Shown: positions 6,971 to 49,413 of the stretch, piece by piece
How positions within the stretch are numbered: the stretch's first letter is position 1
How the letters are laid out: every line of letters starts with the position of its first letter
Assembly: GCA_963722655.1 (NCBI GenBank)
Contig: CAVRNT010000001.1
Span: forward strand, 98,612-162,611
Source: an uncultured bacterium
Lineage (GTDB): Bacteria; Patescibacteriota; Minisyncoccia; UBA6257; GWB1-50-10
Direction of reading: 5' to 3'
DNA: 64,000 bases
The notes under the pieces: model-generated
What the model was told of the DNA's origin: nothing
The model's input: the letters and a program-made list of their open reading frames with translations, nothing else
Databases searched by the model: none
Translations under genes and position numbers: made by a program

Positions 6971-6972
6971 GC

Positions 6973-7873: not shown

Positions 7874-7878
7874 CGACA

Positions 7879-9518: not shown

Positions 9519-9533
9519 GGCGATGATACGTCG

Positions 9534-10937: not shown

Positions 10938-10944
10938 ATGCCGT

Positions 10945-11981: not shown

Positions 11982-13738
11982 TTTTCTTGTAATCCTTTTA
12001 TCTCGAGCATCTGCTCCGGATTCGTCGTGATGATCTGGTCCTCGGTGTAGGAGGCGATGATTTTGATCGCAACGTGCTTCAGCCCCGCGAAGAAGAGTCC
12101 CTCGCCGACCGCGGCCTCCAAAAGGAAGGCCTTCTCGCCCTCGGTGAGGCCGAAGGCCTTGGCGACGGCCTCGATGCTCGTCGGGGACTGTTTTAATAGT
12201 AGCTGAAGCGATGAGTTGGAGATGATCGGCGCGCCGTATTCCGACTTAATGAAGTCGTCCACGTCCTGGGTGATGGTCGTGACGCCGAGGAAGTACTTGC
12301 GGGCGCGCTTCACGAGCCCGAAGAGGAAGGAAGCACTGTCCTTGTATTTCATCATCCACCAGGCCTCGTCGATCACGAGCATCCGCTGTTTCAAAGACGA
12401 CCGGATGAGGTTCCAGACGAAGTTCAATACGATGTACATCGCGATCGGCCGGAGCTCTTCCTCGAGATCGCGGATTGAGAAGACGATGAGGCGGTTCTTG
12501 ATATCCACGTTCGTTGGGGCGTTCGTGAAGCCGGAGTAGGAGCCGTTCACGTATTTATCCAAACGCGCCGCCATTCCCCGGCCGCCCTCGCTGCTTTGGA
12601 GGACGGTCTGAAGATCGCCGAGGAGGGGCGGATTCAGTTCTTTGAGCGAACCGAAGTTATCGGCCGTGATGTCGCGGGAGGCGTAGGTCTCGGTGATCGC
12701 CCGGTCGAGCATCGCCTCCTCCTCCGGCGTGATCTTGCCGAGCATCAGCTTCACTAATCCGGTGAGGTTCAGGATATGCGACTTAAAGACGTCGGCCGGC
12801 TCCTCTCCCTCGGGGATGATCGGGATGTCGAACGGGTTCACGTGGCTTTCGGAAGTGAGGGAGATCTTGAAATAGCTGCCGCCGATCGCGTTCGCGAGGT
12901 TCTGGTACTCGTTCTCCGGATCGATGACGAGGACGTCCGTGCCCATCATCATCGAGCGGAGTATTTGGAGCTTGGTGGCGTAGGACTTGCCCGAACCGGA
13001 TTTGGCAAAGACAACCATATTGGCGTTCTCGAGCGAGAACCGGTCGAAGATGATGAGCCCGTTGTTATTCAAATTAATGCCGTACATCGTGCCAGTCTCA
13101 GAAGAGAGGTCCGGCGAGACGAAGGGGAAAAGCGACGAGGCCGGACCGGTGTTTAGGGGCGTCCGCAAGGCGAGTTTGTCCTCCCCGAGGGGCAGAACGG
13201 AGGTCAATCCTTCGGTTTGGCGGAAAAGCGCCGGTTTGGCGTAGACCAGCTTGCTTTCCAGGGCGTTCACGACAGTCTCCTCAAGAGTCTTGAGGTCCTC
13301 TTGGGTCGAGGCGTAGAGGGTGATGTAAACCCCGACTTCGAAAAGCCGCTCCCGCGCCTGCTGAAGGGAGTCCCGGAGGGTCTCTACGTCCTCGTGGGCG
13401 GTCTCAAGGACCGGGTCGCGGACGATGCCCTTCGCCTCCTTCTCATTCATCTCGGCCTCGATCTGGGCCACCTTCTTCCGCAGGTTCCGAAGGGCGAGCG
13501 CCGTGTCCATCGGATGCATGAAGATCGAGATGTCGATCATCGCTGGCAAATTTATAATGGACGAGAACCAACCGCTCGTGACGAATCGCGGATAGGTGAA
13601 GATGAAGATTGTCTTCGTGAAGTAATCGCCGATCTTCAAATAGTTGCTCCCCACCTCTAATCCGGCGGGGGCGATGATGTTCGGCAGGTCCTCTTCGCCC
13701 GGCTTGTAGGCCTTGGGTATTTTGATCTCGTCGCTCAT
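11978..13738 (-). CDS. VirB4/TrbE/CagE-family type IV secretion ATPase (C-terminal ATPase part)
   Basis: 586 aa. Walker A VVFAKSGSGKSYATK, Walker B LVIDEAWWMM and VirB4-like overall organisation. Confidence 0.75.
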   Translation of the reverse strand: MSDEIKIPKAYKPGEEDLPNIIAPAGLEVGSNYLKIGDYFTKTIFIFTYPRFVTSGWFSSIINLPAMIDISIFMHPMDTALALRNLRKKVAQIEAEMNEKEAKGIVRDPVLETAHEDVETLRDSLQQARERLFEVGVYITLYASTQEDLKTLEETVVNALESKLVYAKPALFRQTEGLTSVLPLGEDKLALRTPLNTGPASSLFPFVSPDLSSETGTMYGINLNNNGLIIFDRFSLENANMVVFAKSGSGKSYATKLQILRSMMMGTDVLVIDPENEYQNLANAIGGSYFKISLTSESHVNPFDIPIIPEGEEPADVFKSHILNLTGLVKLMLGKITPEEEAMLDRAITETYASRDITADNFGSLKELNPPLLGDLQTVLQSSEGGRGMAARLDKYVNGSYSGFTNAPTNVDIKNRLIVFSIRDLEEELRPIAMYIVLNFVWNLIRSSLKQRMLVIDEAWWMMKYKDSASFLFGLVKRARKYFLGVTTITQDVDDFIKSEYGAPIISNSSLQLLLKQSPTSIEAVAKAFGLTEGEKAFLLEAAVGEGLFFAGLKHVAIKIIASYTEDQIITTNPEQMLEIKGLQEK

Positions 13739-14385
13739 TGGGTTATCACCTCTTTCTTTTCGACCAGCTGCGGGTTGTAGAGATTGTAGAAAAGTTCCAC
13801 GAGGTCATCGTCCTCCAAAGGCACTGCCCGGAGGCCGATCTGATTCAAGCCGGTGATGACCTGCTCGGTGCGGCGGCGGAGCTGTTCCAAGTTCTCTTGG
13901 AGCGAGGCCTCTTCCGCGGCCTTCGCGGCCGATTTACCTCCCGAAAAGAGCGAGAGCAGCCCCTTGGAGCCGCCGCCGGGGACGACCACCGGGTCGTAAG
14001 GCACAACGGCGAAGAAAGTCTTCGTAATAATGGCGTTCTGTTCAACGAAGTTCCGGATGAAGTTGACATACTCGTCAATCTGGATCTTCAAGAGCTCGTT
14101 CGTTTCCTCGGCCTTGCGCGCCTCCATCAGCTTCAGGTATTTTTCCACGTTCACCTTCCGCGAGTGGATGAAGAACTGAACGGCGAAATCCAGTGCGTTC
14201 AGGAAATTTTGGAAGCCGCCGAGGATAAGGTTCTGCTCCTCCTCGGATTTGAGCTCGAAGTTGACCCCGCCGACGATGAGGACCTGCCGGAGGGATTTGT
14301 TCTTGAGGTAGACGACGCCGTCCTTGATGGATTTCACCTCCACGAACTCCTGCGACGGTTTGGTTGGCTGTTGTTTCTCCGCCAT
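13735..14385 (-). CDS. VirB4 N-terminal-domain-like protein (split VirB4?)
   Basis: 216 aa. VEVKSIKDGVVYLKNKSLRQVLIVGGVNFELKSEEEQNLILGGFQNFLNALDFAVQFFIH resembles the VirB4/TraC N-domain. Overlaps the ATPase ORF by 4 nt; 216 + 586 aa is about full-length VirB4. Confidence 0.45.
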   Translation of the reverse strand: MAEKQQPTKPSQEFVEVKSIKDGVVYLKNKSLRQVLIVGGVNFELKSEEEQNLILGGFQNFLNALDFAVQFFIHSRKVNVEKYLKLMEARKAEETNELLKIQIDEYVNFIRNFVEQNAIITKTFFAVVPYDPVVVPGGGSKGLLSLFSGGKSAAKAAEEASLQENLEQLRRRTEQVITGLNQIGLRAVPLEDDDLVELFYNLYNPQLVEKKEVITQ

Positions 14386-14399
14386 TTTATCTTATTTTA

Positions 14400-14891
14400 T
14401 CAGTAATCTATCCTTTTTGCTTGCTTGCGCTCGCCCGTGAGATAGACGACCGTCTCGTATCCCTGCTCCTCGCCCTTTTGCGCCTTCAGCGCAAAGAACT
14501 TACCGGTCGTGATGTTCAAAGCGACGTTCTTGAGCCGTTCCTCCAGGCCCATCTTGTGCCGGAGGTTCTCGATGTCCGTCAACTTGTTCAGGTCGATCGT
14601 GGTCGTCGGGTTGATCCTTTGCCAGGTGTAGACCCGGGGTTGCCAGAAATAAGTGAGTGCCGAGGTAACAATCTTCGGGAACTCCTGGCCGTTGATCTTC
14701 AAAAAAGCGAAAGCGAGGCCGATCATGCCGACGATCACCGTCACAATGACGGCGAAGAAGAGATTGAAGATTTGGAAGGAGATGTAGCCCAGAAGGGCCG
14801 CCCCGCCCACGTAGAAGAACTGTTGGAGAGTGAGGAAGCCGACGATCTTCGGCTTCTGTTCTATGAATTGTGGAATTTGGAAATTAGCCAT
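14400..14891 (-). CDS. Small two-TM membrane protein, VirB3-like candidate
   Basis: 163 aa with two hydrophobic helices (FFYVGGAALLGYISFQIFNLFFAVIVTVIVGMIGLAFAFL); sits directly upstream of the VirB4 parts. Confidence 0.35.
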   Translation of the reverse strand: MANFQIPQFIEQKPKIVGFLTLQQFFYVGGAALLGYISFQIFNLFFAVIVTVIVGMIGLAFAFLKINGQEFPKIVTSALTYFWQPRVYTWQRINPTTTIDLNKLTDIENLRHKMGLEERLKNVALNITTGKFFALKAQKGEEQGYETVVYLTGERKQAKRIDY

Positions 14892-16305
14892 TGCTCAAGT
14901 CGACGGTGTTGCCTTCGATTTTCGGCTCCGGCTTTTTGATGGCGCCGAGTATCGCCGGCGTTGCCACCCCCGCGGGAGACGTTTGTGGATCGGAGGACGC
15001 GACCATCGGCTTCACCGCGGTCGGCGCCGCGAACGTCTTTTCCGGCATGTTCTCCGCCTTAGGTTTGATGGTCATGGCCGGCTTTCCCATCGTTTCGGAG
15101 AGCGTTCCTGCGGCCGCCGGTATCGGCATTTCTTCCGGAAGCGGTTTTACCTCACCAACGTTCAGAAAAGCTGGTTCCTCCAAGGCACCGAGGGGCGTGC
15201 GGGTCTCGCTATAATGTACGACCCGTTTCTCTTCCGATTTGATCCCCGGTATCTCCAATTTCGCGAAGGCCGACCTCGGTTCCCCGGTCGCCGGTCTCTT
15301 CTTGAGGAAGAATCCACCGAGGGGCGCGGTAACGCTCCGGAAGACGGACTTCTGGGAAGCGATGTTCCCCTCCGGCACAATCTCTTCGTGGAGAATGAAC
15401 GGCGTCTCCGTTTTTTGTTCCTTGAGCGTGACGGACGACGTTTCTACTGGGATCGATTCTTCTTCCTCGGCACCGCCGATGTTCTCCAAAGAAACTACTC
15501 TTTCAGCCGTCGGCTTTATTTCACCCATAGGTTCATAGATGGAACTAATTGAACCGGTCAGACCACCGACGATGCCGGCTTCGATATCGGATGCTATTTC
15601 ATCGCATATCCTTTGGTCGATGCCAAGTTTCTCTTGCAAGGTCTTAAGCAGGTCGTCGGGGTGAACGAAACCTAAGATCACTTGCCCTACCACTGCTGCC
15701 ACTTGACTGGTTTTGTCATCGCTCAGATGGTGGTTAATGCACGTTCTATATGTGGTTTCCGCTCCCTCGTACGAATACATCGCGCGCCGGAGGTTGTCCG
15801 GAATAAAACGGTACCTTTTGAGGGTTTTCTCGAGATTGCTGTCACCGAGGGATTTCGGGTAAAGTCCGATATCCTGGCCGGGTGCCGCGATGACGAAATT
15901 GTAAATTGACTGTCTTTGCGTTTTGAGCCACCCCAACTTGCTGTTGTCCGTTTGACCGGGAATAGATCGCCAGAAAAGCCTTTCGAACCTGTCTTGGGAA
16001 TCCGGCGACAGGTTTTGTAGCACGATGCTAAATGCCTTGCCGTTCGCGCTGTTCAGAACCGCTCGCACGAGCGCCGGCTGGGCGTTCTTCGTCCAATCAT
16101 CATCACTTAGATCGCCCAAGACCATTGGGAGGCCGGAGAAAACGCCCTCCCAATAGACCGCTTCCCAATCCTCTAATGAAAAACCGCTTAGCAAACTCTC
16201 CAAGCCCCGCTCGGCTGCTGTAAACTGTTTCTTTTGGAGTGGTGCCCAAATAGACTCGTCCCAAGTCGGGAGCACACTCAATATTGTTTGAATATCTTCT
16301 TCCAT
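14884..16305 (-). CDS. Hypothetical protein of T4SS-like operon
   Basis: 473 aa with a Pro/Ala/Glu-rich C-terminal half; no recognised motifs. Confidence 0.4.
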   Translation of the reverse strand: MEEDIQTILSVLPTWDESIWAPLQKKQFTAAERGLESLLSGFSLEDWEAVYWEGVFSGLPMVLGDLSDDDWTKNAQPALVRAVLNSANGKAFSIVLQNLSPDSQDRFERLFWRSIPGQTDNSKLGWLKTQRQSIYNFVIAAPGQDIGLYPKSLGDSNLEKTLKRYRFIPDNLRRAMYSYEGAETTYRTCINHHLSDDKTSQVAAVVGQVILGFVHPDDLLKTLQEKLGIDQRICDEIASDIEAGIVGGLTGSISSIYEPMGEIKPTAERVVSLENIGGAEEEESIPVETSSVTLKEQKTETPFILHEEIVPEGNIASQKSVFRSVTAPLGGFFLKKRPATGEPRSAFAKLEIPGIKSEEKRVVHYSETRTPLGALEEPAFLNVGEVKPLPEEMPIPAAAGTLSETMGKPAMTIKPKAENMPEKTFAAPTAVKPMVASSDPQTSPAGVATPAILGAIKKPEPKIEGNTVDLSNG

Positions 16306-16310
16306 AACCG

Positions 16311-18167
16311 TTATTTTTTACCGCCACCCCCTCTGCCACCGCTGGGTGGTTTCGGTGCGCCGCCTTCCTTTTCTTCCCCCCCATCCTCTTCGTTGATCGC
16401 TTTTATCGCCTCCTCGACCTTCTCCGTTTTGCCTGGCGTGGCGAGGTATTCTTTACCGACCTGACCATAAGCCTTGCCAAGTTTTGTATTCTTGAGTTCA
16501 AAGCCGGCATCTTCGAATGTTTTTCGAGCACTCTTTGGTAATTGAGCCATAATATCTTCCATTGCCGCCGCCGCCTTTAGCGCATCATCGACGTTTTTAT
16601 CGATTTTAACCTTGTTCGCCTTCGCCGCAGCCAGCTCTCTCTCTGCGGCGCTAATTTCCTTAATATCTTTGCCTCGCTCGGCGATCCTAAGATTTTTTTG
16701 GGCAGTATCCACGGCATCGCCCGCATCTTCTTGATTTTTAAGTAGGGGATCTACTGCATCTTTCCGTTTCTTCTTCTCCTTCAGAAGGTCGGAAGCAATA
16801 GCCACACGCTCAGCATTGTTGGCATGAGCGTATCGCTGTGCCTTATCTTTTAGATTCTTCGGCAGTTTTTTGGTGGCATCCGCTATTTGTTTTTCAACTT
16901 TGGCTCGCTGCTCGGCCAAAGCATTGCCGGCTAAACGCACCTGTCCGGTGATCGGGGCAGCGATCGGTTTGAGCCACGACGGAAGATTTTGGCCGAATTT
17001 CTGCATTCCGCCGACAATATTGCGGCCCGCCTGAGTGCGGAGAGGTGCCGTCGCCATTCTGGCCGATGCTTTCCCGGCCCATCCCCTAACTTGTTTGCCT
17101 GTGCTTTTAGCGATATTAATCGCCCCCGCCGCGCCCGCGATGCCCATGCTCTTCGCGGCGATGAGTCCGCCGAGAAGGATACCGGCGAGGACCACCATCT
17201 GGGCGCCCTGGCTGAAGGTCGTCTCGAGGACCGAGCCGACGGAGCCACCCGTTGAGATCTGGGCGGAGCCCAAAAATTGGGCGCCGGTCAGGGCCACGTA
17301 GATGAAAAACGAGACGGCCGGAGCGAAGAAGACCCAGTCCAAGAACTTGCTCCACCATTCGTTGAAGAGCTTATTGAGCGGCGGAAAGACCCAGAAGAGC
17401 CAGACTAGAGGCGCGACGATGAGAAGGAAAGAAAGATACACGTAGCGGATGAGGAGCATTAAGGCGAGTGCGATCATCACGAGTGCAGCGATGGCGGTAA
17501 AGGCCGTCGTGAAGATCAGCCCCGCGATGCTCGTGAGGGCCGCCGCCGTCACCCCGCCCGCGGCGCTACCCTGATCCGCCGGGTTCGGCGGTTCCGGGTT
17601 TTCCGGCGGGAGAAGGAGCTTCTGCGGCGCGAAAGCGTTGTCGATCGCCGAGACCATATCGCCACTCATCTTGCCGTTAAGAAAAACGTTCGTGAGGGAG
17701 TTCGAGAAGGTGATGAAGATGCCGGCGATGGTCAAGCTGAAGTTGACGATGATCGCGGCGCCGATGAGCTTCGGCAATAAGCTCTTGGCGCTGAATCTCT
17801 CGTAGCGGACGATGGTTGCGACCGCGACGATGATCATCATGAGGACGAAGCCAAGGTTCGCCACGTCGCGGGCGATCGTCCAGCCGACGCCGACGAGCGC
17901 GTTGTTCTGGTTCAAAATGTCAGCGTTCAAGTGCATCATCAAGTTCACCAAGAAGCCGCCGAGGATGAAGAGCAGTCCGAAGACGAAGTTCAGGATGAAG
18001 GCCAGGATGCGGAAGACCATCGTGGCGACGCCGGCCGGGCTGAGGTCGAGGAGGCCGAAAAGCGCCGCGTGGGTCGTCTGCGGCATCACCAAAAGCGGTA
18101 GGGCGATCAGGGCGCCGATCAGGGCAATCTTCAAAATTCTTGTCACTTGTTGCTTATTTCCTGTCAC
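16311..18167 (-). CDS. Polytopic membrane protein, VirB6/TrbL-like, with C-terminal Lys-rich coiled-coil tail
   Basis: 618 aa; the first ~330 aa have at least 6 TM helices; the C-terminus is charged coiled-coil ending GGRGGGGKK. Confidence 0.5.
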   Translation of the reverse strand: MTGNKQQVTRILKIALIGALIALPLLVMPQTTHAALFGLLDLSPAGVATMVFRILAFILNFVFGLLFILGGFLVNLMMHLNADILNQNNALVGVGWTIARDVANLGFVLMMIIVAVATIVRYERFSAKSLLPKLIGAAIIVNFSLTIAGIFITFSNSLTNVFLNGKMSGDMVSAIDNAFAPQKLLLPPENPEPPNPADQGSAAGGVTAAALTSIAGLIFTTAFTAIAALVMIALALMLLIRYVYLSFLLIVAPLVWLFWVFPPLNKLFNEWWSKFLDWVFFAPAVSFFIYVALTGAQFLGSAQISTGGSVGSVLETTFSQGAQMVVLAGILLGGLIAAKSMGIAGAAGAINIAKSTGKQVRGWAGKASARMATAPLRTQAGRNIVGGMQKFGQNLPSWLKPIAAPITGQVRLAGNALAEQRAKVEKQIADATKKLPKNLKDKAQRYAHANNAERVAIASDLLKEKKKRKDAVDPLLKNQEDAGDAVDTAQKNLRIAERGKDIKEISAAERELAAAKANKVKIDKNVDDALKAAAAMEDIMAQLPKSARKTFEDAGFELKNTKLGKAYGQVGKEYLATPGKTEKVEEAIKAINEEDGGEEKEGGAPKPPSGGRGGGGKK

Positions 18168-18180
18168 TTGTTTAATTTAC

Positions 18181-19776
18181 CTATCTGTTGGCTTCGCACT
18201 GCTGTTGTTTGTTTTGGGCCGCCGCAAGGGTTATTTGAATGCCAGAGAGCATAATCTGGACGTTGCTATCTAAGTTGGCCGCAGTCATTGTGAGGTTGGC
18301 GACATTGCTAGAATCAACGCTATTTAGCGTACTGGACGTGACATTCGGGTCACCGATGATGCCAATCAGCGTGTTGACCGAAACCGTTGAAGAAGTAACC
18401 TGAACCGCCGCTTGTTGTAACGCGGCGGGCGTCGAACTCACGGCGATCGTCAGATTCTCCTGAGCCCAGCCGTAGTCGGGGTTGACGGGATTAGTGCCCA
18501 AGCAACCAATGAGCCCGGTAATTGGCCCGCCCAACGTCGTTATTAGGGTTTGATTGGTGCTAGAAGCGGTCGCGAGCGTCGTTGATGCGTCGGCGAGCGA
18601 ACTTGCGGCCTGGTTCAGTTGGGTCATGTACTGGCTCTGGAGCGCCGTGTTTATGGTATTAGTGTAGTTATTTGCCGCTGTGATCGTCGATGTGTTATTG
18701 GTCAGTGATTCCGGAGACGGCGCGTTTGGACCGCTAGACGGCTGGCCGCCGTTCGTCGCCGAAAGGATGACCCCTTGCAGGCCCTGCACCCCCGCCTTGA
18801 TCAGTCGGTTAAAGGCGGCGTCGGCGATCATTGCGATCGCGTTCGTTATATCCGGATCGCTGATGGTGAGATCGAGGTTAGCGTACAGCGATTTATTCAA
18901 GCCCTCTGCGAGAGCGGCGCCCGGCGTGGAGATCTTAAGATCGGCGCACTTCCACTGAAGTGTCGTTGGGTCCACGCCCGGCGCGACCAATGCTGGATCG
19001 AGGAAGTTCGGGGTGCCGCTGATGGGCGACGGCGGATTGTCCTGATCGGTGAGATTAGAAGGGGCCGGTACTGTCTGGGAGCCGACGGGCGTTCCACCTT
19101 GGATCTTGATGAGCCGCCAGCTGACGCATGACTGTGATTGGAACCCGACGTTCACTTGGGTTTGGAGGACGTTCTGAGCCGTAACCTGCTGAGCGTTGTT
19201 GTAAAGGGTGTCTTGGGTGATGATGTCTACGCCGTACTGGTTGTTCTGCGGCGCAAGGAGTTCGTAGTAGCCGATGACGCCGCCGGCGTCGAACCTGTTC
19301 CAGAAATCGTTGAAATTCGCGACGATGGAATTGAGCGTGCAGGAGCTCGGCTGGACCTGCGGGCTGGGGGCGGTTAGCTCCAGATTGACCTTGAAGCTGA
19401 ACGGGGAACAAAGGGTCGGCAGGATCGCCTGGGCCGTGTCCCCGACCGCTTGGTTCAGCGCTGGCTGGAAGACCCCTTGGCCGAAATTCTGGATGAACTT
19501 CGGGCTGCCGCCGCCGTTTATCCAGGTGATTATCTGATCGGTCATCGTGTCGATAATCCGCTTTTTAAGTGCGGACAAGGCAACTTTCAAGAGATTATCT
19601 TGCACCCATTGCCACACGCTTTGCGTTTTAGCCGCAGTGGTTATGTTTTGTAATGTTGGGTCGGAAACCAACATCACTCCAGCTACTTGAGCTTTTGCTG
19701 TTGGCGTAAAAAAACCGGGAGCCGAAATAACAGTAACAATGCCAAAAATTAAAACTGCGGTAAGAAATTTTTTCAT
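18181..19776 (-). CDS. Secreted Thr/Ser/Asn-rich hypothetical protein
   Basis: 531 aa with signal peptide (MKKFLTAVLIFGIVTVISAPGFFTPTAKA) and low-complexity T/S/N/Q-rich regions. Confidence 0.4.
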   Translation of the reverse strand: MKKFLTAVLIFGIVTVISAPGFFTPTAKAQVAGVMLVSDPTLQNITTAAKTQSVWQWVQDNLLKVALSALKKRIIDTMTDQIITWINGGGSPKFIQNFGQGVFQPALNQAVGDTAQAILPTLCSPFSFKVNLELTAPSPQVQPSSCTLNSIVANFNDFWNRFDAGGVIGYYELLAPQNNQYGVDIITQDTLYNNAQQVTAQNVLQTQVNVGFQSQSCVSWRLIKIQGGTPVGSQTVPAPSNLTDQDNPPSPISGTPNFLDPALVAPGVDPTTLQWKCADLKISTPGAALAEGLNKSLYANLDLTISDPDITNAIAMIADAAFNRLIKAGVQGLQGVILSATNGGQPSSGPNAPSPESLTNNTSTITAANNYTNTINTALQSQYMTQLNQAASSLADASTTLATASSTNQTLITTLGGPITGLIGCLGTNPVNPDYGWAQENLTIAVSSTPAALQQAAVQVTSSTVSVNTLIGIIGDPNVTSSTLNSVDSSNVANLTMTAANLDSNVQIMLSGIQITLAAAQNKQQQCEANR

Positions 19777-20573
19777 GAAGCCAATGATTGATATTGCGCT
19801 TGCATGGTTTGTTGAACCGTCAAATTCTCATTGAGAATATCGTTGATTTGGTTCAAACCGATAACCGCCTTAGCTGGATCGTTCGCGAGGTCGGCGATGG
19901 CCGAGAAGACAGTTATTTTCTCTTCCCAAAGGTTGATGTTAGAAAGGTGCCAGGCCGCCCAGTTGTTCGGCGCGCGCAAAGCCAAGAGGTCCACGACCTC
20001 CTGGTTTGCGATCGCGATGTACTGGTTTAGGGCTGAAGTGTCGTTGTTGTTAAAAAAGTTCGATACCATCTTGTCCATCGGCGTCTTAAAAGAGCCGAAA
20101 TCCTTTTGGGTGATCGCTCCTACGGCGGCGAGGTATTGGAGCTGGCTCGTTGTCGAAACATCGTCCGATGTCAGAATATCCTCCGGAGCGTAGGTTTTGT
20201 ATTGGAGCTTTTGGTTGATGGCTTGAGAGAGGAGTTGACTCGTCTCGTCCACGGACGGGAAGCTGATAGGGTTGGAGCCGGTCGCACTCGCGCCGGCGAA
20301 GCCGCTGTTCATCTGGAAAACGGTTTGGGCGTAGTTTTGCGTCAAAAGGTCGGTGAGATTATCCGTTACCGCTGCGGTCCCGCTCGCAGTGCCGCCGTTG
20401 TTCATCGGTCCGCGGTTCGCGCTCACGGTGTAGTCCAAGCTGCCGTCTGCACCAGCGCCAGTCTTGGCCGTGACCAAGGGTGCGTTACTTGACGAAGACG
20501 CCCCGATGATGACGAAAAATAGAGCGATTCCGCCCAAAAGAACGATCGCGGCGATGATTTTTCGTCTTTTCAT
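19773..20573 (-). CDS. Membrane-anchored/secreted hypothetical protein
   Basis: 266 aa with N-terminal TM helix (IIAAIVLLGGIALFFVIIGAS); first gene of the operon in transcription order. Confidence 0.4.
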   Translation of the reverse strand: MKRRKIIAAIVLLGGIALFFVIIGASSSSNAPLVTAKTGAGADGSLDYTVSANRGPMNNGGTASGTAAVTDNLTDLLTQNYAQTVFQMNSGFAGASATGSNPISFPSVDETSQLLSQAINQKLQYKTYAPEDILTSDDVSTTSQLQYLAAVGAITQKDFGSFKTPMDKMVSNFFNNNDTSALNQYIAIANQEVVDLLALRAPNNWAAWHLSNINLWEEKITVFSAIADLANDPAKAVIGLNQINDILNENLTVQQTMQAQYQSLAS

Positions 20574-27907: not shown

Positions 27908-28306
27908 ATGCAAATGGGTTTCGCGATCCCCTCGAAAGGCAAAAAACATCGAGGTGAATCGGACGGCGACAAGCAAAAGCCGAGAGAGGTTCTTAACGTT
28001 GAGGTGGTTGGGCCGAAAGGCAGACAAAAACTATTCATCTCCGTTAGCATGGAGAACGGTGGTCTGATAGCAGACGCCGAAGGTGTCTTGATCGACGGCT
28101 TGATCTCTAAAGAATTCACAACCGGACAAAGCGGAATTTATGTCCACGAAGTTAAGTTCGATGGAAACGAACCAACTCGCGTTATCAGAGTTAAAATTGG
28201 CGATGGACCGATTCATAACTGGGAATCAGTCATTATGAACACAAAACCGCCGCGACTTCAACTAAGTCCAATAACAGCCGAACTAGAAAGGAGGTTTCCC
28301 GTATGA
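27908..28306 (+). CDS. Hypothetical protein (gene 2 of 3-gene operon)
   Basis: 132 aa from the ATG after RBS AGGAGG (MQMGFAIPSKGKKHRG...); the stop of gene 1 overlaps this region; no recognised motif. Confidence 0.35.
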   Translation: MQMGFAIPSKGKKHRGESDGDKQKPREVLNVEVVGPKGRQKLFISVSMENGGLIADAEGVLIDGLISKEFTTGQSGIYVHEVKFDGNEPTRVIRVKIGDGPIHNWESVIMNTKPPRLQLSPITAELERRFPV

Positions 28307-28872
28307 ACCTGAAATCGATTTGGCAATGGATCATTACATTCGGTGGTGATGTCCTCGCCGCCATTTGGGGCAGTAAGCTTGCTGCCGAAGATGGTAACAA
28401 ACCTGTTGGTGGTGCAAGCCCGGGTAAGATTCTTGGAGGATACCTCCAAGAAAAACTAGCCGAAAAGCTTGATCGCGGCACTCTACTCCATGAACTTCAT
28501 ACCATAAACGCTGATACCCAAGGCGGCATCCAGAAACTTATGGAACTCTACCTCGAACTCCAGGTGAAACACGTCATCTTCGTCGGGAATCAGGCCTACA
28601 CGGAAGACGAACTGGGGTTGATGCTTATGCAGATACCAGTAGATGAACGTAGCACGGAGTATGTTATTTTGAACGACGTGCTTGTAGAACAGGGCCGTGA
28701 AGCCTTATTCTCTCAATTGGAAATACTGCGCAACAACAAGCTCCAACAAAAACTCGAAAAATTCGACGCCGTGGCCAAAAAGAAGATCGGCGAAGTTGCG
28801 GAGCCGATTAAAAATGCGGCCCGCAAGAACAGGGAGAACAAGGGCTATGTCATCCCTTCATACCTCGAATAG
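28303..28872 (+). CDS. Hypothetical protein (gene 3 of 3-gene operon)
   Basis: 189 aa; start overlaps the gene 2 stop (ATGA coupling); no recognised motif. Confidence 0.4.
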   Translation: MNLKSIWQWIITFGGDVLAAIWGSKLAAEDGNKPVGGASPGKILGGYLQEKLAEKLDRGTLLHELHTINADTQGGIQKLMELYLELQVKHVIFVGNQAYTEDELGLMLMQIPVDERSTEYVILNDVLVEQGREALFSQLEILRNNKLQQKLEKFDAVAKKKIGEVAEPIKNAARKNRENKGYVIPSYLE

Positions 28873-28893
28873 GTAGTTGTAATCATTCAAAAA

Positions 28894-28922
28894 CCCGCTT
28901 CATCGGAAGCGGGTTATTATTT
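28894..28922 (+). terminator. Rho-independent terminator CCCGCTTC-atcg-GAAGCGGG + TTATTATTT
   Basis: Perfect 8-bp stem, 4-nt loop and T-rich tail, read directly. Confidence 0.7.
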
Positions 28923-28949
28923 GACAAATTACATATATTATGCTAATAT
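28921..28949 (+). promoter_or_regulatory. Sigma70-type promoter TTGACA-17nt-TAATAT
   Basis: Read directly; lies upstream of the membrane-protein gene at 29027. Confidence 0.45.
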
Positions 28950-29026
28950 TCACCCAGTTTCTCATAATAGAAAATTAGTGGGATTGATAGAAAAACCTAA
29001 ATAAACCCTTAATAAGGAGGTCTAAA

Positions 29027-30109
29027 ATGCTTTCCGAATTGCTGAAAATGATCGCCTCTATCGGCGACAAGCCGGTGGTCGATTTTGTCGATATGGCGAG
29101 AAAGCTCGCCTTCATCAAAAAACCGCAAGAGCGATCGGTTTGGTCTGTGTATCTTCAGGCGTTGCTACGCTATGCCCTAGCGATTACCATCGCTCCGATG
29201 GTGTTGCTGGCCATAGGCATCGCAACCGACTGGAACTGGTTGATTGGGATCGTCGGCGTATTTTGGTCAATCTGCACTATCTTGATCTTCGTGATTGCCG
29301 CGCCTGTCGGGGTCCTAATTGAAATGATTGCTGACTACCCTTCCGGATTCGGTAAGAATTATGTCCATACGGTCGGTAAGGTGCTGGCCATGGAAACAGC
29401 GTTTGCTTTCGGCGCAATGATCGTTCCTGTCGGCAATAATCCGAATATTTTGCCGGTGGCGATCGTCGCGGTGATACTGCTCGCTTGGTTTTCTTGGTCT
29501 GGATCACAGGTGATAAAGGGTAAGAAGCCGAATAAGTTGGCAACGAAGCTCGTTGGCTCGGTCCTGACTATCACCATACTCGCTTTCTTCTTTCCGAATA
29601 TCCTTCCGGTCGGAAGTAGTTGGATTCGTTGGGCAAACGAAAAAGTCTTGGATCTTAAAAAACCAGGACTTCCTCTCGCTCCGTTGGCCACTAGCCAAGC
29701 CGAACTGAACCAAGCGATAGCGCAGGCGCAACAAACGCAGAGCCCAATGCCTCCGGGAATGCAGGCAAACGTGTCTGCACAACCGATACAGCCGGCGGAT
29801 ATCCGTTTCGCTGGCAACGAGACATCAAAGGATGTTCCCTACACAACCGCCAGATGCACTCCCTGGGTTTATCTTCCCAGGACCACTGGTAGCTGGTCTA
29901 CGGATTTGACCCCCGCTCTTACTACACCAGGACAATCGATATCCATCTATTGTCTTGATGGTAGGAAGTTCACGAGGACGTACGATCATAATCCGGTCAT
30001 CTACCCAACACCTCAGGCCATCTCCATCGTCGGGGATAACTGCGAGGGGACGGCGACGATAAACATCCTACGTCTAGGTCATGGACAAGTGGCAATGTTG
30101 AGCCACTAA
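29027..30109 (+). CDS. Polytopic membrane protein with C-terminal extracytoplasmic Cys-containing domain
   Basis: 360 aa; 5-6 TM helices in the first 200 aa, then a Gln/Pro-rich linker and a C-terminal domain with 4 Cys; RBS AAGGAGG. Confidence 0.45.
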   Translation: MLSELLKMIASIGDKPVVDFVDMARKLAFIKKPQERSVWSVYLQALLRYALAITIAPMVLLAIGIATDWNWLIGIVGVFWSICTILIFVIAAPVGVLIEMIADYPSGFGKNYVHTVGKVLAMETAFAFGAMIVPVGNNPNILPVAIVAVILLAWFSWSGSQVIKGKKPNKLATKLVGSVLTITILAFFFPNILPVGSSWIRWANEKVLDLKKPGLPLAPLATSQAELNQAIAQAQQTQSPMPPGMQANVSAQPIQPADIRFAGNETSKDVPYTTARCTPWVYLPRTTGSWSTDLTPALTTPGQSISIYCLDGRKFTRTYDHNPVIYPTPQAISIVGDNCEGTATINILRLGHGQVAMLSH

Positions 30110-30174: not shown

Positions 30175-31512
30175 CTAAATTCCGTACGTGTATGGGGCGA
30201 CAATAAGAAATCCTGTGACGGTCAAAACCGCTATCGCGATGAGCGCGAGGCGCGCGGCGAAGTCGTTTTTCTCAATCAGCTTTCCGACGAAGATTCCGGC
30301 GAGGGCGATGGCGAAAAGCAGCGCCGGGAAGTAGTGATAGAGAAATGTGGCGCGATGGACAATGGTGAAAAACGGCATGAGACAAAAAATATAACCGACC
30401 ATAAGAAGCAAGGCCGGTTTCATTTTTTCGTCAAAAAATCGCTTAACCCCGCTTTTGATCGTGAGCCAAAGCGCACCGATGACCGCGGTCGTCGAGGCGA
30501 GCCAGACGAACGGATTGCCGACGAGAACGATCCGCTTCGTGAATTCCATTGGTTTCCACATAAAAGGCCAGGCGTACCACGGGCTCATTAGTGGGTGAGA
30601 GGCCCCGCTCGTGTAGCCGGTTACCATTAAAAGTCCATTAACTATTACCGCTTTGACCGCCGCAATCGTCCGCGGAACGTTTTGATAAGCCCCGGTGATC
30701 TTTTGGAGTATCGGCCAGCCGAAAAGCCCAACGTCATAGCTTAAATACGCATTCGGGCGGGCGACGATACCACTCAAGCCTAATTCGGCAAAAACGAGCA
30801 CGATGAGCGCGGCGACGGCGAACTTCCAGAAAACGCTCTTAACGTCCTCTTTCGGGATTCTCGACCAGCCAATTAAAAGTGCAGCGACGATCGGGCCGAT
30901 AAAAACTATCGCCGTGAGCTTAACACTCAAAGCAAGGCCGAAAAGCAGTCCGGCAACGGTGGGTCGCGGTCTTTCTTTGAGAAAAAAATAGAGGGACCAT
31001 AGACCGAAAGCAATGTACATTCCGTCCATTAGGACCAGGCGAGTGTCCAAAAGTAGCGCGTTTTCGAATATCAAAAGGAACGTGCCGGCGATGGCGGCAA
31101 TGGGGCCGGCGAGCGCTCGTACGAGAAGATAGAAACCGGCGATCATCAGCAGGCCGAAAAGGACGCTGACGACTCTTAGGGGAACATAGGGGAATTGGCC
31201 GTACGGCACCGGGTTATAGTTGGTTTGGAGATTATCCGTCGCGACATTGTGATTGAAAGTAACATAATCGGCACCGGCCAAATCCACCCGCGGATAGAAG
31301 AGAAGCGGCAAAGCGTAGATCCATTTACCGAGGGGTGGATGGACATCGAAAAATATTTTTCCCGTAGCGTTATCAGCGGCGTAGGTCGTAAAATAGGCCT
31401 CGTCAAAGACCGGTTCGGCTGGCAAGACGATGCGATAGAGATGCAGAAAGGCGCTTAGAAGGACCAAAAAAATAAAAGCGACTGTTTCATATCGCTTCAA
31501 AAAATCCGCCAT
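30175..31512 (-). CDS. GT-C family glycosyltransferase (GT39 PMT / ArnT-like)
   Basis: 445 aa, polytopic; N-terminal loop carries EPVFDEAYF, consistent with the DE motif of PMT/ArnT-type GT-C enzymes. Confidence 0.6.
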   Translation of the reverse strand: MADFLKRYETVAFIFLVLLSAFLHLYRIVLPAEPVFDEAYFTTYAADNATGKIFFDVHPPLGKWIYALPLLFYPRVDLAGADYVTFNHNVATDNLQTNYNPVPYGQFPYVPLRVVSVLFGLLMIAGFYLLVRALAGPIAAIAGTFLLIFENALLLDTRLVLMDGMYIAFGLWSLYFFLKERPRPTVAGLLFGLALSVKLTAIVFIGPIVAALLIGWSRIPKEDVKSVFWKFAVAALIVLVFAELGLSGIVARPNAYLSYDVGLFGWPILQKITGAYQNVPRTIAAVKAVIVNGLLMVTGYTSGASHPLMSPWYAWPFMWKPMEFTKRIVLVGNPFVWLASTTAVIGALWLTIKSGVKRFFDEKMKPALLLMVGYIFCLMPFFTIVHRATFLYHYFPALLFAIALAGIFVGKLIEKNDFAARLALIAIAVLTVTGFLIVAPYTYGI

Positions 31513-31515
31513 ATT

Positions 31516-31836
31516 TTATTGCGCCTTGATGACGTTGGTGACTATCGTCTGGACGCCGCTTGCTAGAAGCGCCACGGCCGCCGCGATCACGGCGTAGAGG
31601 ATAATCCTCTTCGCTTTGGTAATCTTTTCGTCGTCGCCGCCGGCCGTGACGAAAAGTATCGCCGCCCAGATGAGCATCCCGACCGCGATTATCCAAAAGA
31701 TGCCAAAAAGGTAGTTCACCCAGTTATTGAGGGTGTTTTTAACGTCCGTAATCGATGTAATGGGCGGTGTTTGAGCGGCGGCGATCGCTGGGAGGAAGAA
31801 AACCGTGAGTGCGCCGAGCGTCTTTTTGATCATCAC
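31516..31836 (-). CDS. VirB2/TrbC-like pilin paralog 1
   Basis: 106 aa; signal peptide ending AIAAAQ, then helix-AGGDDEKITKAKR-helix. Confidence 0.55.
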   Translation of the reverse strand: MMIKKTLGALTVFFLPAIAAAQTPPITSITDVKNTLNNWVNYLFGIFWIIAVGMLIWAAILFVTAGGDDEKITKAKRIILYAVIAAAVALLASGVQTIVTNVIKAQ

Positions 31837-31901
31837 TTTTATAATACAACTTTATGTAAAAAAACAAACCCCGCTTGGCGGGGTTTGTTCATCGATCGAT
31901 T

Positions 31902-32261
31902 TTAGGAGGTTGAACCAAGCAAGAGCCGTGTGACAATCGCTTGTAGACCGGTCGAAAGGAGGGCGATGGCCGCCGCGATGATCGCGCCGATAACGCGCTT
32001 CTTCGCTTGGCCGATCTTTTCTTCGTCGCCGCCAGCCGTGAGGTATAGGACCGCCGCCCAGATCAGGAATAATACAGTGATTATCCAGAAGATGGTGATG
32101 AGCCAGTTGATGATGTTGGTCAAACTGCCCTGCGCTTGGCCCAAGGATGTAATCGGGGCCACCGCCGTGATTCCCGGCGGTTGCTGAGCCAGCGTCGCGA
32201 GCGGCGTGACGATGGCCATCGTCATTACCGCAACGCTCACGATTTTTTCGAATTTCGTCAT
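31902..32261 (-). CDS. VirB2/TrbC-like pilin paralog 2
   Basis: 119 aa from the internal Met (MTKFEKIVSVAVMTMAIV...LTAGGDEEKIGQAKKR...); the 210-aa ORF-track version has an implausible Arg-rich extension. Confidence 0.5.
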   Translation of the reverse strand: MTKFEKIVSVAVMTMAIVTPLATLAQQPPGITAVAPITSLGQAQGSLTNIINWLITIFWIITVLFLIWAAVLYLTAGGDEEKIGQAKKRVIGAIIAAAIALLSTGLQAIVTRLLLGSTS

Positions 32262-32293
32262 TTCGGTAGGTTGTGCTTTGTAAGCTCGACCTT

Positions 32294-32701
32294 TTATTGA
32301 CTTAACAGACTTTGGATGATGGAAGTTATCCCCCAACCGATAAGAATTATAGCATAGCCGATGACGGCGTAAAGAACAGTCCTTTTGCCCGTCGCGAACT
32401 TCTCCTCGTTTCCGGCGGCGGTCACCATTTGTAACGCCCCTATAATAATCATACCGACTGCAATCGGTGTCGCGATGATCCATAACCAGTGGACGATGGA
32501 TTGTATGAGTCCTTCTACGGTGCCGTTCTGGCAATTGGTGCTCCCGCTCGTGCAGAGAGGGTTAAGTAAGGAAATTGCTGTGGGACCAGGCGAAAGTGGC
32601 CCAGCTTGGGCTAAAACAGTCGATACACCGGTACCAACCGCTAAGACACACAAAGCTCCACTTAGTCCCAAAACAATCAATTCTCTTCTCATTCGTTTCA
32701 T
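32294..32701 (-). CDS. VirB2/TrbC-like pilin paralog 3
   Basis: 135 aa; signal peptide, Cys pair (CTSGSTNC), then helix-AAGNEEKFATGKR-helix. Confidence 0.5.
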   Translation of the reverse strand: MKRMRRELIVLGLSGALCVLAVGTGVSTVLAQAGPLSPGPTAISLLNPLCTSGSTNCQNGTVEGLIQSIVHWLWIIATPIAVGMIIIGALQMVTAAGNEEKFATGKRTVLYAVIGYAIILIGWGITSIIQSLLSQ

Positions 32702-32702
32702 T

Positions 32703-33140
32703 TTAGCACTGAATTTGGGCCCACGGGAAGTCCAGCCGGCCGGTCAGGACCTGGAAGAGCGTGTTCACAATGAGCCACCCGCAGAGGATGATGATGAGGC
32801 CGATGATCGCGCTCGTCATTATCTTTCTCGCCTCGCCGAAGTTGCTCTCAGAACCGAAGGAGACCATCATCCGGATCGCGCCGTAGACGATGAAGACGAC
32901 GGCGATGATTATCCCGAGGGGTACCGCGATGTTGTTTATGATGTTCCCGGCGACGATCACGGCATCGCAGGTCGAGCAGCCAATCGTGGAAGTGCCGGTC
33001 GTCGCGTTGCAGGTCTGGCCGCCCTGTCCCGTTCCCTGCCAGATGTTGAAGCTGAAGTTCGGCATCGCGGCCGAGGCCGTTTGGGCGAGAGCGCTGGAAA
33101 CGGCGATGATGGCGAAAGCGACGATTAAAATTTTATGCAT
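32703..33140 (-). CDS. VirB2/TrbC-like pilin paralog 4
   Basis: 145 aa from the internal Met (MHKILIVAFAIIAVSSALAQTASA...); Cys-rich mature N-terminus; helix-FGSESNFGEARK-helix. Confidence 0.5.
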   Translation of the reverse strand: MHKILIVAFAIIAVSSALAQTASAAMPNFSFNIWQGTGQGGQTCNATTGTSTIGCSTCDAVIVAGNIINNIAVPLGIIIAVVFIVYGAIRMMVSFGSESNFGEARKIMTSAIIGLIIILCGWLIVNTLFQVLTGRLDFPWAQIQC

Positions 33141-33157
33141 TTCAATATTGGGGAGGT

Positions 33158-34468
33158 TTAACCTCCTATGTTCTGCGCGAGCTGGTAGATCTGGTTTTGA
33201 GCTTGAGTCAGAGCCGCTTGAACAGTCGTTTGGCCCGTGAGGACACTCTGGATCGTTTGAGAAAGGATCTGGGCATCGGCGGCCGGGTCGGCCTCGTACC
33301 ACGACTTCGCGATCAGGGCCTGTCTCGCGAAAGCGCTCAAGGTCGGGTCGCTTTCCTCATTATATATCACCTGGTTCAGGGCTGGTGGCTTGCCGGTCGC
33401 GGTCACGTAGGCGGCGGCGTTCGTCTGGTTCGTCGTCATATCCAGAATGAGGGTCCAGGCGAGAGCGGCGTGGGTGCTCTGTTTGGAGACGACGTAAGCC
33501 CAGTAGTTCGGGTAGGCCGCCACGACTCCGTTTTTGACCTGCGGCACCGGTACCGTCTCGATGTCGAGGAAAGGCTTCTGCGACTTTATCTGCGGAATGG
33601 CCGATTCGTAGTCGAAGATCATCGCTGTTTTGCCTTGGGCGAGGGCGTCAACTGGGTCGGGGAGCGTCGAGCTCCAGGTATAAACGGACGAGTTCGGTGA
33701 GCCGAACTGGACGTAGAACTGAAGGGCGTTCTGAGCCGCTTGGGAATTGAGGTTGAAGTTACCCGCGCGCGAGTCCAGGGCGACGCCGTTCTGGATCAAG
33801 AGAAGCGCCAGAAGATCGGAGGCGCGGGGAACGCTGTCGTTCGGGCCGCCGATCGCCGCCGCCGCTTGAATGATGTTCCCGGCCGCGTCCTTTTGCGTGA
33901 GCTTCGGGACGTTCGCCGTGAAATCGTCCCAACTCTGCCAGGTCGATGGGAGCGGCACGCCGGCCTGGTCGAAGAGCGAGCGGTTGTAGATCAAGGCGAG
34001 GGTGTCGATCGAGAGCGGCAGGCCGTAGACCTGACCTTGAGAAACGAAGTCCTGGACCACGACGGGCGGGAAAAGTTGTTGCAGGTTGAGGAGTGCGAAC
34101 TGGGTCTGGGGAACGGGCGTGATCTTGTTCAAATTTGGCTGGAGGTCCGTGTTCGGGACCATAAAGATGTCCGGTCCTTCGTTCGCCGCGAGGGCGTTCA
34201 AGACGGCCGCCTCGTACGTCTTAGCGTCGGGGAAGCTCCGGTAGTTCACCGTGACGTTCTTATATGTCTGGTTGAAACTTTGGATGGCGGCACCATAGGC
34301 CGATGACGGGTCGCCGACGCCCCAGAAGTTCAAAGTCGCCTTGATGTTCTGGGGGTTCGTCTGCTGATTTTGAAGTCCTGGCAGGATGCCGATGAAGACC
34401 AAGGCGAATATCAAAACCACGCCGCCCCCGACAGCGATCATTATGATTTGATTGTGAGAGAATTTCAT
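33158..34468 (-). CDS. ABC transporter extracellular solute-binding protein (family 1, sugar-type)
   Basis: 436 aa with N-terminal TM/signal anchor and SBP_bac_1-like composition; no cognate permease or ATPase in the window. Confidence 0.6.
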   Translation of the reverse strand: MKFSHNQIIMIAVGGGVVLIFALVFIGILPGLQNQQTNPQNIKATLNFWGVGDPSSAYGAAIQSFNQTYKNVTVNYRSFPDAKTYEAAVLNALAANEGPDIFMVPNTDLQPNLNKITPVPQTQFALLNLQQLFPPVVVQDFVSQGQVYGLPLSIDTLALIYNRSLFDQAGVPLPSTWQSWDDFTANVPKLTQKDAAGNIIQAAAAIGGPNDSVPRASDLLALLLIQNGVALDSRAGNFNLNSQAAQNALQFYVQFGSPNSSVYTWSSTLPDPVDALAQGKTAMIFDYESAIPQIKSQKPFLDIETVPVPQVKNGVVAAYPNYWAYVVSKQSTHAALAWTLILDMTTNQTNAAAYVTATGKPPALNQVIYNEESDPTLSAFARQALIAKSWYEADPAADAQILSQTIQSVLTGQTTVQAALTQAQNQIYQLAQNIGG

Positions 34469-41038: not shown

Positions 41039-41114
41039 GGGCCAGTAGCATAGCGGCTAATGCAACGAGCTTATACCTCGTAGACCGAGGGTTCGAGTCC
41101 TTCCTGGCCCACCA
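41039..41114 (+). tRNA. tRNA-Ile (anticodon UAU) with encoded CCA
   Basis: Hand-folded: acceptor GGGCCAG/CTGGCCC, D-stem GCAT/ATGC, anticodon stem ACGAG/CTCGT with loop CTTATAC, T-loop TTCGAGT, discriminator A, CCA. Confidence 0.55.
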
Positions 41115-48654: not shown

Positions 48655-49413
48655 ATGGAATTCAAATTGTCCGGGAAGAAGGTGGTCATACTCGACTTAG
48701 ATGGGACGCTCGCGAAAAGCAAACAGCCGCTGGACCGGGAAATGGCGCCTCTCCTCGCCGCGCTGACCAAAAAGACCGTGGTCGCCGTTATCGGCGGAGG
48801 CAAGATCGCCCTTTTCCGCAGGCAGGTCCTTGCTCCCCTGCGGCCTTTCCGACCAGATCTGCGGGACCTTCGCCTTTTCCCGACGAACGGGGCCGCGCTT
48901 TACCGCTGGAACGGCAGCTGGAAGAAGGTTTATGAGTCGGAACTCTCAAAAGCCGACGCGGCGCGCATCAAATCGGCCGTAAAAACCGCTCTTACGGAGA
49001 TCCATTTCAAGCATCCTAGGCGCCGTTACGGCCCATTGGTTGAGGACCGCGGAGCACAGATCACGTTTTCGGCCCTCGGCCAACGCGCACCCCTCTTGGC
49101 CAAAATGAAATGGAACCGCAAAAGTGACATCCGGCCGGTATTGGCCAAAGAACTCAAGAAACTTTTGCCGGGATTCAACGTTCAAGAAGCCGGCCTCACG
49201 TCCGTGGACGTCACGAAGGAGGGCATTGATAAAGGTTATGCCATCCGTCGGCTGATGCAGTACCTTCATTTAAAGAGAAGCGAGGCTCTTTTCGTGGGTG
49301 ATGCCATTTCCCCCGGTGGTAACGATTACCCGGCCAAAAAAACCGGCATCCCCTGTCTCAAAGTTTCGGGGCCGGAGGAAACGAAGCAGATGATCAAACG
49401 GCTCCTTGATTGA
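48655..49413 (+). CDS. HAD-superfamily hydrolase (Cof/IIB-like)
   Basis: 252 aa; motif I ILDLDGTL at the N-terminus and GDAISPGGND near the C-terminus. Confidence 0.55.
   Translation: MEFKLSGKKVVILDLDGTLAKSKQPLDREMAPLLAALTKKTVVAVIGGGKIALFRRQVLAPLRPFRPDLRDLRLFPTNGAALYRWNGSWKKVYESELSKADAARIKSAVKTALTEIHFKHPRRRYGPLVEDRGAQITFSALGQRAPLLAKMKWNRKSDIRPVLAKELKKLLPGFNVQEAGLTSVDVTKEGIDKGYAIRRLMQYLHLKRSEALFVGDAISPGGNDYPAKKTGIPCLKVSGPEETKQMIKRLLD

Follow-up and report, generated by a model that had tools for sequence, protein, structure and literature searches.

A conserved set of four VirB2-like pilin genes in Patescibacteriota, with a substrate-binding protein and a protein O-mannosyltransferase as predicted operon partners

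Arrays of small VirB2-like proteins have been described several times in Patescibacteria. In 2020, arrays of small signal-peptide proteins were reported beside the Saccharibacteria type IV secretion system (T4SS) and were read as possible effectors, and the TM7x array was likened to the pertussis toxin ptx/ptl locus (McLean et al., 2020; PMC7427843). Arrays in S. epibionticum ML1 (SEML1_0014-0019) were recognised as pilins in 2023 and found essential by transposon sequencing (Tn-seq) (Wang et al., 2023; PMC10633639). A 2025 survey collected 441 VirB2 arrays of 2-11 genes from 383 Patescibacteria assemblies, an array being tandem genes or genes separated by one non-pilin gene; identity within arrays had a mean of 25% and a maximum of 54% (Quinonero-Coronel et al., 2025; PMC12102498). 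A review of the same year described it as an intriguing possibility that these monoderms make a T4SS pilus (PMC12857230). In the only species tested genetically, the T4SS and the pilin array are essential, and their function is called completely unknown (PMC11665869, PMC12857230). Here we describe an array of four genes, pilins A to D, in a 64,000-nucleotide stretch of DNA from an uncultured Patescibacteriota bacterium (assembly GCA_963722655.1, contig CAVRNT010000001.1, positions 98,612 to 162,611 of the forward strand; hereafter the window). With four adjacent genes and pairwise identities of 22-45%, it falls within the survey's definition (PMC12102498). It is a further example of the published arrays and no new kind of element.

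The four proteins almost certainly belong to the PF18895 (T4SS_pilin) family of VirB2-like T4SS pilins. Pilins A, B, C and D score 48.9, 35.2, 43.8 and 34.0 bits, all above the Pfam gathering threshold of 26.6 bits, and the match of pilin C spans profile positions 3-71 of 71. The same profile is matched by every member of a 75-sequence family alignment. Several homologs carry the NCBI name ‘pilin [Patescibacteria group bacterium]’. In NCBIfam, weak sub-threshold similarity is found to NF045849 (Mbov_0395), a ‘pilin-like conjugal transfer protein’ family from integrative and conjugative elements (ICEs) of mycoplasmas. The original prediction had placed four successive open reading frames (ORFs) of 145, 135, 119 and 106 aa here on the minus strand, and they are present at those positions. 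Their PF18895 scores of 34-49 bits and the conserved order of their orthologs on at least 10 further contigs indicate that they are real genes and not chance ORFs.

The proteins have a common architecture. In each, a Sec-type signal peptide precedes an N-terminal segment rich in Ser, Thr and Pro, and a short charged loop connects the two long hydrophobic helices that follow. The signal peptide ends in PxxAxA before a Q, a pattern that is near-invariant across the 75 sequences. Kyte-Doolittle hydrophobic stretches agree with a signal peptide plus a two-helix hairpin. In AlphaFold2 models of pilins D and A, the signal helix is followed by a non-helical N-terminal segment and then by a hairpin of two ~35-residue helices (H57-93/H98-133 in D, pLDDT 73; H28-63/H68-104 in A, pLDDT 78). 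The loop motif reads TAGGDDEKITKAKR in pilin A, TAGGDEEKIGQAKK in pilin B and TAAGNEEKFATGKR in pilin C. It had been attributed to all four proteins, but in pilin D it is degenerate (VSFGSESNFGEARK). Both of the predicted cysteine clusters were found, CTSGSTNC in pilin C and TCNATTGTSTIGCSTC in pilin D. Pilin D has three cysteines in the exposed N-terminal segment and one in helix 2, and its C-terminal tail reads FPWAQIQC.

We favor the following explanation, with a probability of about 60%. The array would encode a fixed set of VirB2-like pilins that are exported by Sec and assembled by VirB4 into a pilus-like structure with differentiated subunits. A substrate-binding protein (SBP) encoded upstream and a protein O-mannosyltransferase (PMT) encoded downstream would be operon partners with putative roles in it. 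The features concerned are listed in Table 1.

Table 1. Features of the pilin block and of the T4SS-like operon, with their positions in the window.
Feature	Positions	Strand	Description
SBP	33158-34468	minus	membrane-anchored SBP_bac_1 protein, oligosaccharide-binding type; directly upstream of pilin D
Pilin D	32703-33140	minus	145 aa, longest paralog; identical to database protein P0001
Pilin C	32294-32701	minus	135 aa; NPL motif and C-x6-C loop (CTSGSTNC) ahead of helix 1
Pilin B	31902-32261	minus	119 aa
Intrinsic terminator between pilins B and A	31862-31890	minus	13-bp stem (7 GC pairs), then T7 run
-10-like promoter element	31841-31848	minus	TGTATTAT; in relatives TGTATAAT; ends 7 nt ahead of pilin A ATG
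Pilin A	31516-31833	minus	105 aa from ATG 31833, shortest paralog; mature N-terminus QTPPITS
PMT	30175-31512	minus	GT39 protein O-mannosyltransferase, GT-C fold; PF02366 PMT 74.8 bits, PF16192 PMT_4TMC 78.6 bits
T4SS-like operon	8304-20573	minus	chromosomal, next to yidC/dnaA/dnaN
467-aa protein	9534-10937	minus	N-terminal pilin domain; PF18895 39.4 bits
VirB4 ATPase	11978-13738	minus	586 aa; NCBIfam VirB4 CD1110 family (monoderm) 375.7 bits vs 325 cut-off; PF19044
TrsD-like N-terminal ORF	13735-14385	minus	216 aa; separate ORF, precedes VirB4 ATPase
PrgI/VirB3-like protein	14400-14891	minus	PF12666

Comparison with related genomes indicated that the array is a fixed arrangement. Five related genomes share the same block, in which the SBP gene is followed by four pilin genes and then by the PMT gene. 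The full conserved order is gyrA, SBP, D, C, B, terminator, promoter, A, PMT. All clade loci compared have four pilin genes in this order; the records of some relatives are labelled ‘uncultured Candidatus Saccharibacteria’. Positional orthologs are 60-69% identical across the five genomes, and paralogs 21-49%. Pilin B, for example, has a mean identity of 69% to its positional orthologs and 43% to class A. The exposed N-terminal segments are 53-69% identical, compared to 70-78% for the hairpins. Motifs specific to each paralog are also retained. All 16 orthologs of pilin D keep the three N-terminal cysteines and the C-terminal FPW...C tail, and the NPLC-x5/6-C loop of pilin C is present in 10 of 11 C-class homologs from the database. 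A second exception is the pilin C ortholog of one related locus (L004_C), which has no cysteine loop at that site and two cysteines further upstream. Pilins A and B have a P-I-T-S motif in common. Because order, number and paralog-specific motifs are conserved, and because the exposed segments are only slightly less conserved than the hairpins, these comparisons argue for fixed, anciently diverged orthogroups with differentiated structural roles and not for interchangeable variants.

The original prediction had read the divergent pilins as antigenic or partner-specific variation. In this reading, variants would be swapped to evade recognition or to suit different host strains, a role put forward for VirB2 paralogs in Bartonella and Anaplasma and suggested for Patescibacteria arrays too (PMC12102498). 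The low identity between paralogs is in line with it, since they differ most in the length and composition of the exposed N-terminal segments. Array size is also not constant across SBP-linked loci (2 to 8 genes), and the survey's arrays vary in size and have a low mean identity. However, the clade comparison does not bear it out. The paralog number is four in all loci of the clade, and each position is a conserved orthogroup with strictly kept motifs. The exposed segments are conserved at a level near that of the hairpins, and pilin A has its own conserved promoter and terminator. We consider variation an unlikely explanation of this array.

The base composition of the array was also considered. 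Its GC content is 51-53%, against ~56% for the window; the lower-GC segment noted originally is thus real, and the dip modest. A low-GC island or recent transfer was rejected, as the dip is small and genomes with 42-75% protein identity keep the block in synteny. That this synteny holds down to a PMT identity of 42% speaks against an island of recent origin.

The window contains a T4SS-like operon with which the pilins could be assembled. It encodes VirB4 (CD1110), a TrsD-like ORF and a PrgI protein, and these support a T4SS link of the array, as does a homologous array beside VirB6-like genes elsewhere (L103). The array had been described as separate from this operon by about 11 kb, and we measured 10.9 kb from the operon end near 20573. 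The 467-aa protein is the only member of the pilin family in the operon, and its C-terminal extension of ~330 aa has no family match. A hidden Markov model built from the five window copies found no family member in the window beyond the four pilins and the 467-aa protein. The operon also encodes membrane proteins without an assignment. Seven other ORFs of the operon (112-618 aa; 14884-20573, 8304-9518 and 10945-11981) have no meaningful Pfam or NCBIfam match, with one far-sub-threshold Pfam score among them; VirB6- and VirB8-like components may be among them. The VirB4 coding region is split over two ORFs (11978-14385) that overlap by 4 nt. Directly beside the operon are dnaN, dnaA, yidC and a Jag/R3H gene (3946-8307), which places the replication origin region in the window and makes the T4SS origin-proximal. 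An origin-proximal, MPF-FATA-like T4SS has been described for some Patescibacteria (PMC12102498), and the window matches this. Other pilin homologs that were sampled include, besides the VirB6-linked array, two singletons (L102 and L021) and one at a contig end (L104).

Upstream of the pilins, the array is linked to the SBP. Orthologs of this protein carry SBP_bac_1/SBP_bac_8 domains. In the PDB, this protein is related to binding proteins for arabino-, malto- and manno-oligosaccharides (E 2e-12 to 1e-7), and gyrA precedes its gene. When an alignment of SBP orthologs was used to scan metagenomes, 80 loci were found (73 distinct), with identities of 34-75%. Wherever at least 700 bp of downstream sequence was available (56 of 56 loci), the SBP gene is followed on the same strand by one to eight PF18895-like ORFs, and arrays of three or four genes are the commonest. 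Where 2 kb or more of upstream sequence was available (46 loci), no pilin-family ORF lies ahead of the SBP gene. Since gyrA lies upstream in 59 of the 80 loci, most of them share neighborhood ancestry. Two distant lineages that were sampled via pilin matches, L019 (an Azambacteria-type contig) and L020, also show the pairing, in their case without gyrA. Judged by gene neighborhood, the SBP is the most consistently linked partner of the pilin array. The original prediction had made no mention of it.

This linkage could be explained in another way. The hairpin proteins might build no T4SS pilus and instead be membrane partners of the SBP in a VirB4-independent capture, uptake or adhesion device. 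The one-sided order of the SBP and pilin genes and their pairing outside the gyrA context agree with such a device, and none of the 80 SBP-linked loci has a gene for VirB4 or PrgI within 5 kb. No gene for an ATP-binding cassette (ABC) permease or ATPase was found beside the SBP gene or among the Pfam-scanned ORFs of the window, a scan that left out a few ORFs near the window start. However, the same family is embedded in T4SS clusters elsewhere (L103; SEML1_0014-0019), and one member is fused into a gene of the window's own T4SS operon. The family also has profile similarity to TrbC/VirB2 and to ICE pilin-like proteins. To our knowledge, no SBP-dependent transporter has two-helix hairpin subunits, which also counts against this explanation. 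We therefore regard a VirB4-independent device as improbable, and keep to a T4SS-assembled pilin set.

Several distant SBP-linked loci contain additional genes. An unannotated gene of 230-290 aa lies between the SBP gene and the pilins in L020 (4086-5519) and L019 (5100-5978). L020 also encodes a 477-aa protein with two tandem pilin domains; it and the 467-aa protein of the window match in their pilin domains and show no homology beyond them. Metagenome arrays of five or six genes have a recurrent non-pilin ORF of ~180-300 aa in mid-array. L019 also encodes a sortase (8738-9343), two genes downstream of its SBP-linked pilin pair.

The pilin genes are probably transcribed in two units. The hairpin between pilins B and A has a fold energy of -22.5 kcal/mol (z = -5.2). 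A hairpin with a T-run is found at the same place in four related genomes, where the stem sequences differ. The -10-like box and its spacing to the pilin A ATG are kept in five genomes, and no Shine-Dalgarno sequence is found between the box and this ATG. The stop codon of pilin A is 3 nt from the PMT start. These features suggest one unit composed of SBP, D, C and B, which may extend from gyrA, and a separate unit composed of A and PMT that is probably leaderless. The separation of the latter follows from the conserved terminator and -10 box ahead of A. Both the promoter function of the box and a leaderless mRNA are predictions from its conserved position. Pilin A was called as 31516-31836 (106 aa). 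The ATG at 31833 is more likely to be its true start, because the resulting 105-aa protein is identical to database protein P0003 and this start fits the conserved promoter spacing. Just upstream of the pilin D start, the SBP stop codon lies in the loop of a short perfect hairpin, GGAGGT-TAA-ACCTCC (33150-33170). Its GGAGG is 21 nt from the pilin D ATG, too distant for a normal Shine-Dalgarno sequence.

The gene downstream of pilin A was expected to encode a GT-C glycosyltransferase, and it is a PMT of family GT39. Its motifs FDEAYF, which contains the loop-1 Asp-Glu, and DVHPPLGK are invariant in five orthologs; the catalytic role of the Asp-Glu motif is known from the literature. In every related locus with enough sequence, the PMT gene directly follows the four pilin genes, down to 42% PMT identity. 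The exposed segments of the pilins contain 17-43% Ser+Thr, compared to 12-16% in the mature proteins, and are also rich in Pro, Ala and Gly. On the basis of adjacency, probable co-transcription and substrate-like composition, O-mannosylation of the pilins in this clade is a reasonable hypothesis; the mannose would come from polyprenol-phosphate-mannose. Elsewhere in the window, 48655-49413 encodes a HAD-family protein that matches eukaryotic-type phosphomannomutase (PF03332), a possible source of activated mannose for the PMT. Two genes on the plus strand (28303-30109) are convergent to the PMT gene and encode proteins of 189 and 360 aa with no assigned function. The 360-aa protein contains several hydrophobic stretches and a C-terminal part with cysteines. 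Genes of similar size occupy the same position in three related loci (L001, L004 and L006), but phmmer links the pair to only 1-2 of the 80 metagenome loci.

A sequence of events can be proposed for the pilus-like structure. After Sec export and cleavage by signal peptidase, the hairpins would be stored in the membrane with the charged loop in the cytoplasm. The VirB4 machine would then extract and polymerise them into a pilus-like filament or conduit, which may be used in contact with a host bacterium. The paralogs would take distinct structural roles; pilin A, for example, could be a separately and strongly expressed major subunit, and pilins B, C and D minor subunits made together with the SBP. 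During Sec translocation, the co-transcribed GT39 enzyme may O-mannosylate exposed Thr/Ser in the pilin N-termini, at least in those of A. In pilin D, a disulfide may join the N-terminal segment to the C-terminal tail: if its four extracytoplasmic cysteines are all oxidised, one disulfide must bridge the two. Such a link could be a topological analogue of the cyclisation of T-pilin and TrbC.

Several points weigh against this explanation. None of the four proteins reaches the PF04956 (TrbC/VirB2) threshold of 27.9 bits, and the sole reported score is that of pilin D (11.5 bits, E 0.35). Of the VirB2/TrbC identity first proposed, the assignment as T4SS pilins stands through PF18895, but a direct PF04956 match does not. 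PF04956 is matched weakly, at E<=0.01, by 30 of the 75 aligned family members (best E 3.9e-10), so the relation to classical TrbC/VirB2 is real but transitive. Fold searches were uninformative, as the helical hairpin is indistinguishable from thousands of unrelated hairpins; the family profile, searched against PDB sequences, gave no match below E 0.5. With no VirB4 or PrgI gene near the SBP-linked arrays, the T4SS link of this locus type is one of homology alone. Only the arrangement of promoter and terminator speaks for pilin A as the major subunit. Of 33 informative SBP-linked loci, 7 have a PMT-like gene after the array; these 7 are for the most part the nearest relatives, with one distant locus (L096) among them. 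Clade-wide synteny is high, with gyrA, rpsO, NYN and PNPase genes also kept, so adjacency alone is weak evidence that the pilins are PMT substrates. No filament, glycan or disulfide has been reported for any Patescibacteria T4SS pilin.

A 29%-identical PMT (L017) has no pilins nearby. On this and the 7-of-33 count, the PMT was rejected as a universal partner of pilin arrays, and by gene context the PMT-pilin link is restricted to this clade.

A role of the array products as cargo or effector subunits that Sec exports and the T4SS releases, as proposed for the homologous TM7x array (PMC7427843), is very improbable: all four proteins do have signal peptides and the genome does have a T4SS, but most of each mature protein consists of two long hydrophobic helices, which indicate integral-membrane or filament subunits and not soluble toxins, all four score as PF18895 pilins, and the quoted similarity to pertussis toxin S1 is only 11% identity (PMC7427843).

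The assembled pilin set would be of interest beyond this genome. Patescibacteria account for a large part of the diversity of bacteria and spend their lives attached to other microbes. In a widespread type of locus, their pilin array appears in an operon with an oligosaccharide-type binding protein and sometimes with a protein mannosyltransferase. The SBP/PMT operon and the fixed paralogs provide specific, testable leads on the composition, modification and use of the pilus. In a bolder version, the SBP, the pilins and the clade-specific GT39 enzyme would belong to a single device: a pilus assembled by the T4SS and O-mannosylated, with the SBP as a partner that captures or docks on host-derived glycans. 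We put this forward tentatively, and think it somewhat doubtful. If true, this would be the first case of glycosylation in a conjugative-type pilin, and pilus-linked nutrient capture or adhesion would offer a concrete lead to why epibiotic Patescibacteria cannot do without the T4SS and its pilins.

A few further observations were made in the window and in the sampled loci. In GCA_027310975.1 (L002 2264-2521, the same as L008), an 85-aa GIY-YIG gene lies between pilins C and B; it is not present in the otherwise near-identical array of L001. The singleton of L021 is a 127-aa PF18895-family protein encoded inside the cell-division (dcw) cluster of a 1.2-Mb contig (5617-8145), with mraZ, rsmH and a 123-aa gene ahead of it and an ftsI-type penicillin-binding protein gene right after it. 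In the window, ARAGORN identified a tRNA-Ile with anticodon TAT (UAU) at 41039-41114. Most bacteria read AUA with a lysidine-modified CAU tRNA.

The pairing of a pilin gene with a glycosyltransferase gene has counterparts in other systems. In Pseudomonas aeruginosa, pilA-tfpO/pilO and pilA-tfpW consist of a type IV pilin gene followed by a gene for a GT-C-fold membrane glycosyltransferase. The actinobacterial GT39 Pmt carries out Sec-coupled O-mannosylation of Thr/Ser in Pro/Ala-rich segments. The window is similar to the former in that a pilin gene is directly followed by a GT-C-fold glycosyltransferase gene, and the composition of the pilin N-termini matches the substrate segments of the latter. 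Unlike in the window, the P. aeruginosa pilins belong to the unrelated type IV pilus class, similar to the type II secretion system; glycosylation of the window pilins is a prediction, and their PMT link is found in one clade only.

Among pilins of conjugative type, the array resembles several families in part. The monoderm pilin-like families NF045849 (Mbov_0395) and NF045890 (pLS20_p028) are weakly similar by profile along the full hairpin (E 9e-7 to 4e-3), and in the 467-aa protein of the T4SS operon a pilin domain is joined to a large extension, much as in pLS20_p028. The scores are, however, under the curated cut-off (28.6 vs 40 bits), and these families are single-copy in mobile elements and not chromosomal arrays. 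With TrbC/VirB2 pilins (Agrobacterium T-pilin, RP4 TrbC and F TraA), the window pilins have in common a signal or leader peptide, two hydrophobic helices, a short basic loop and a genome that encodes VirB4. Pilins of the TrbC/VirB2 class form extracellular conjugative pili that contain bound phospholipid. T-pilin and TrbC undergo head-to-tail cyclisation, and F pilin is N-acetylated; we know of no glycosylated VirB2-type pilin. Unlike these diderm systems, the window host is a monoderm and its pilins stay below the PF04956 threshold, and the conserved cysteine set of pilin D could staple its N- and C-termini. The VirB2 families of Bartonella and Anaplasma phagocytophilum also consist of several tandem, divergent virB2 copies (as cited in PMC12102498). 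Those copies have been read as antigenic or host-range variants, whereas paralog order, number and sequence are conserved across genomes in the present clade.

The closest systems are the Patescibacteria VirB2 arrays themselves. Neither the SBP link nor the PMT link is mentioned in the main text of the survey (PMC12102498); keyword literature searches found no report of the SBP link and no paper that combines both. Like the published arrays, the window array consists of tandem, divergent PF18895 genes with signal peptides on a chromosome that has a monoderm-type VirB4/PrgI T4SS near dnaA. In S. epibionticum ML1 the array is located inside the T4SS cluster, whereas in the window it lies 11 kb away in a gyrA-SBP-pilins-PMT block. 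Unlike in the published arrays, the paralogs in the window are demonstrable as fixed positional orthogroups.

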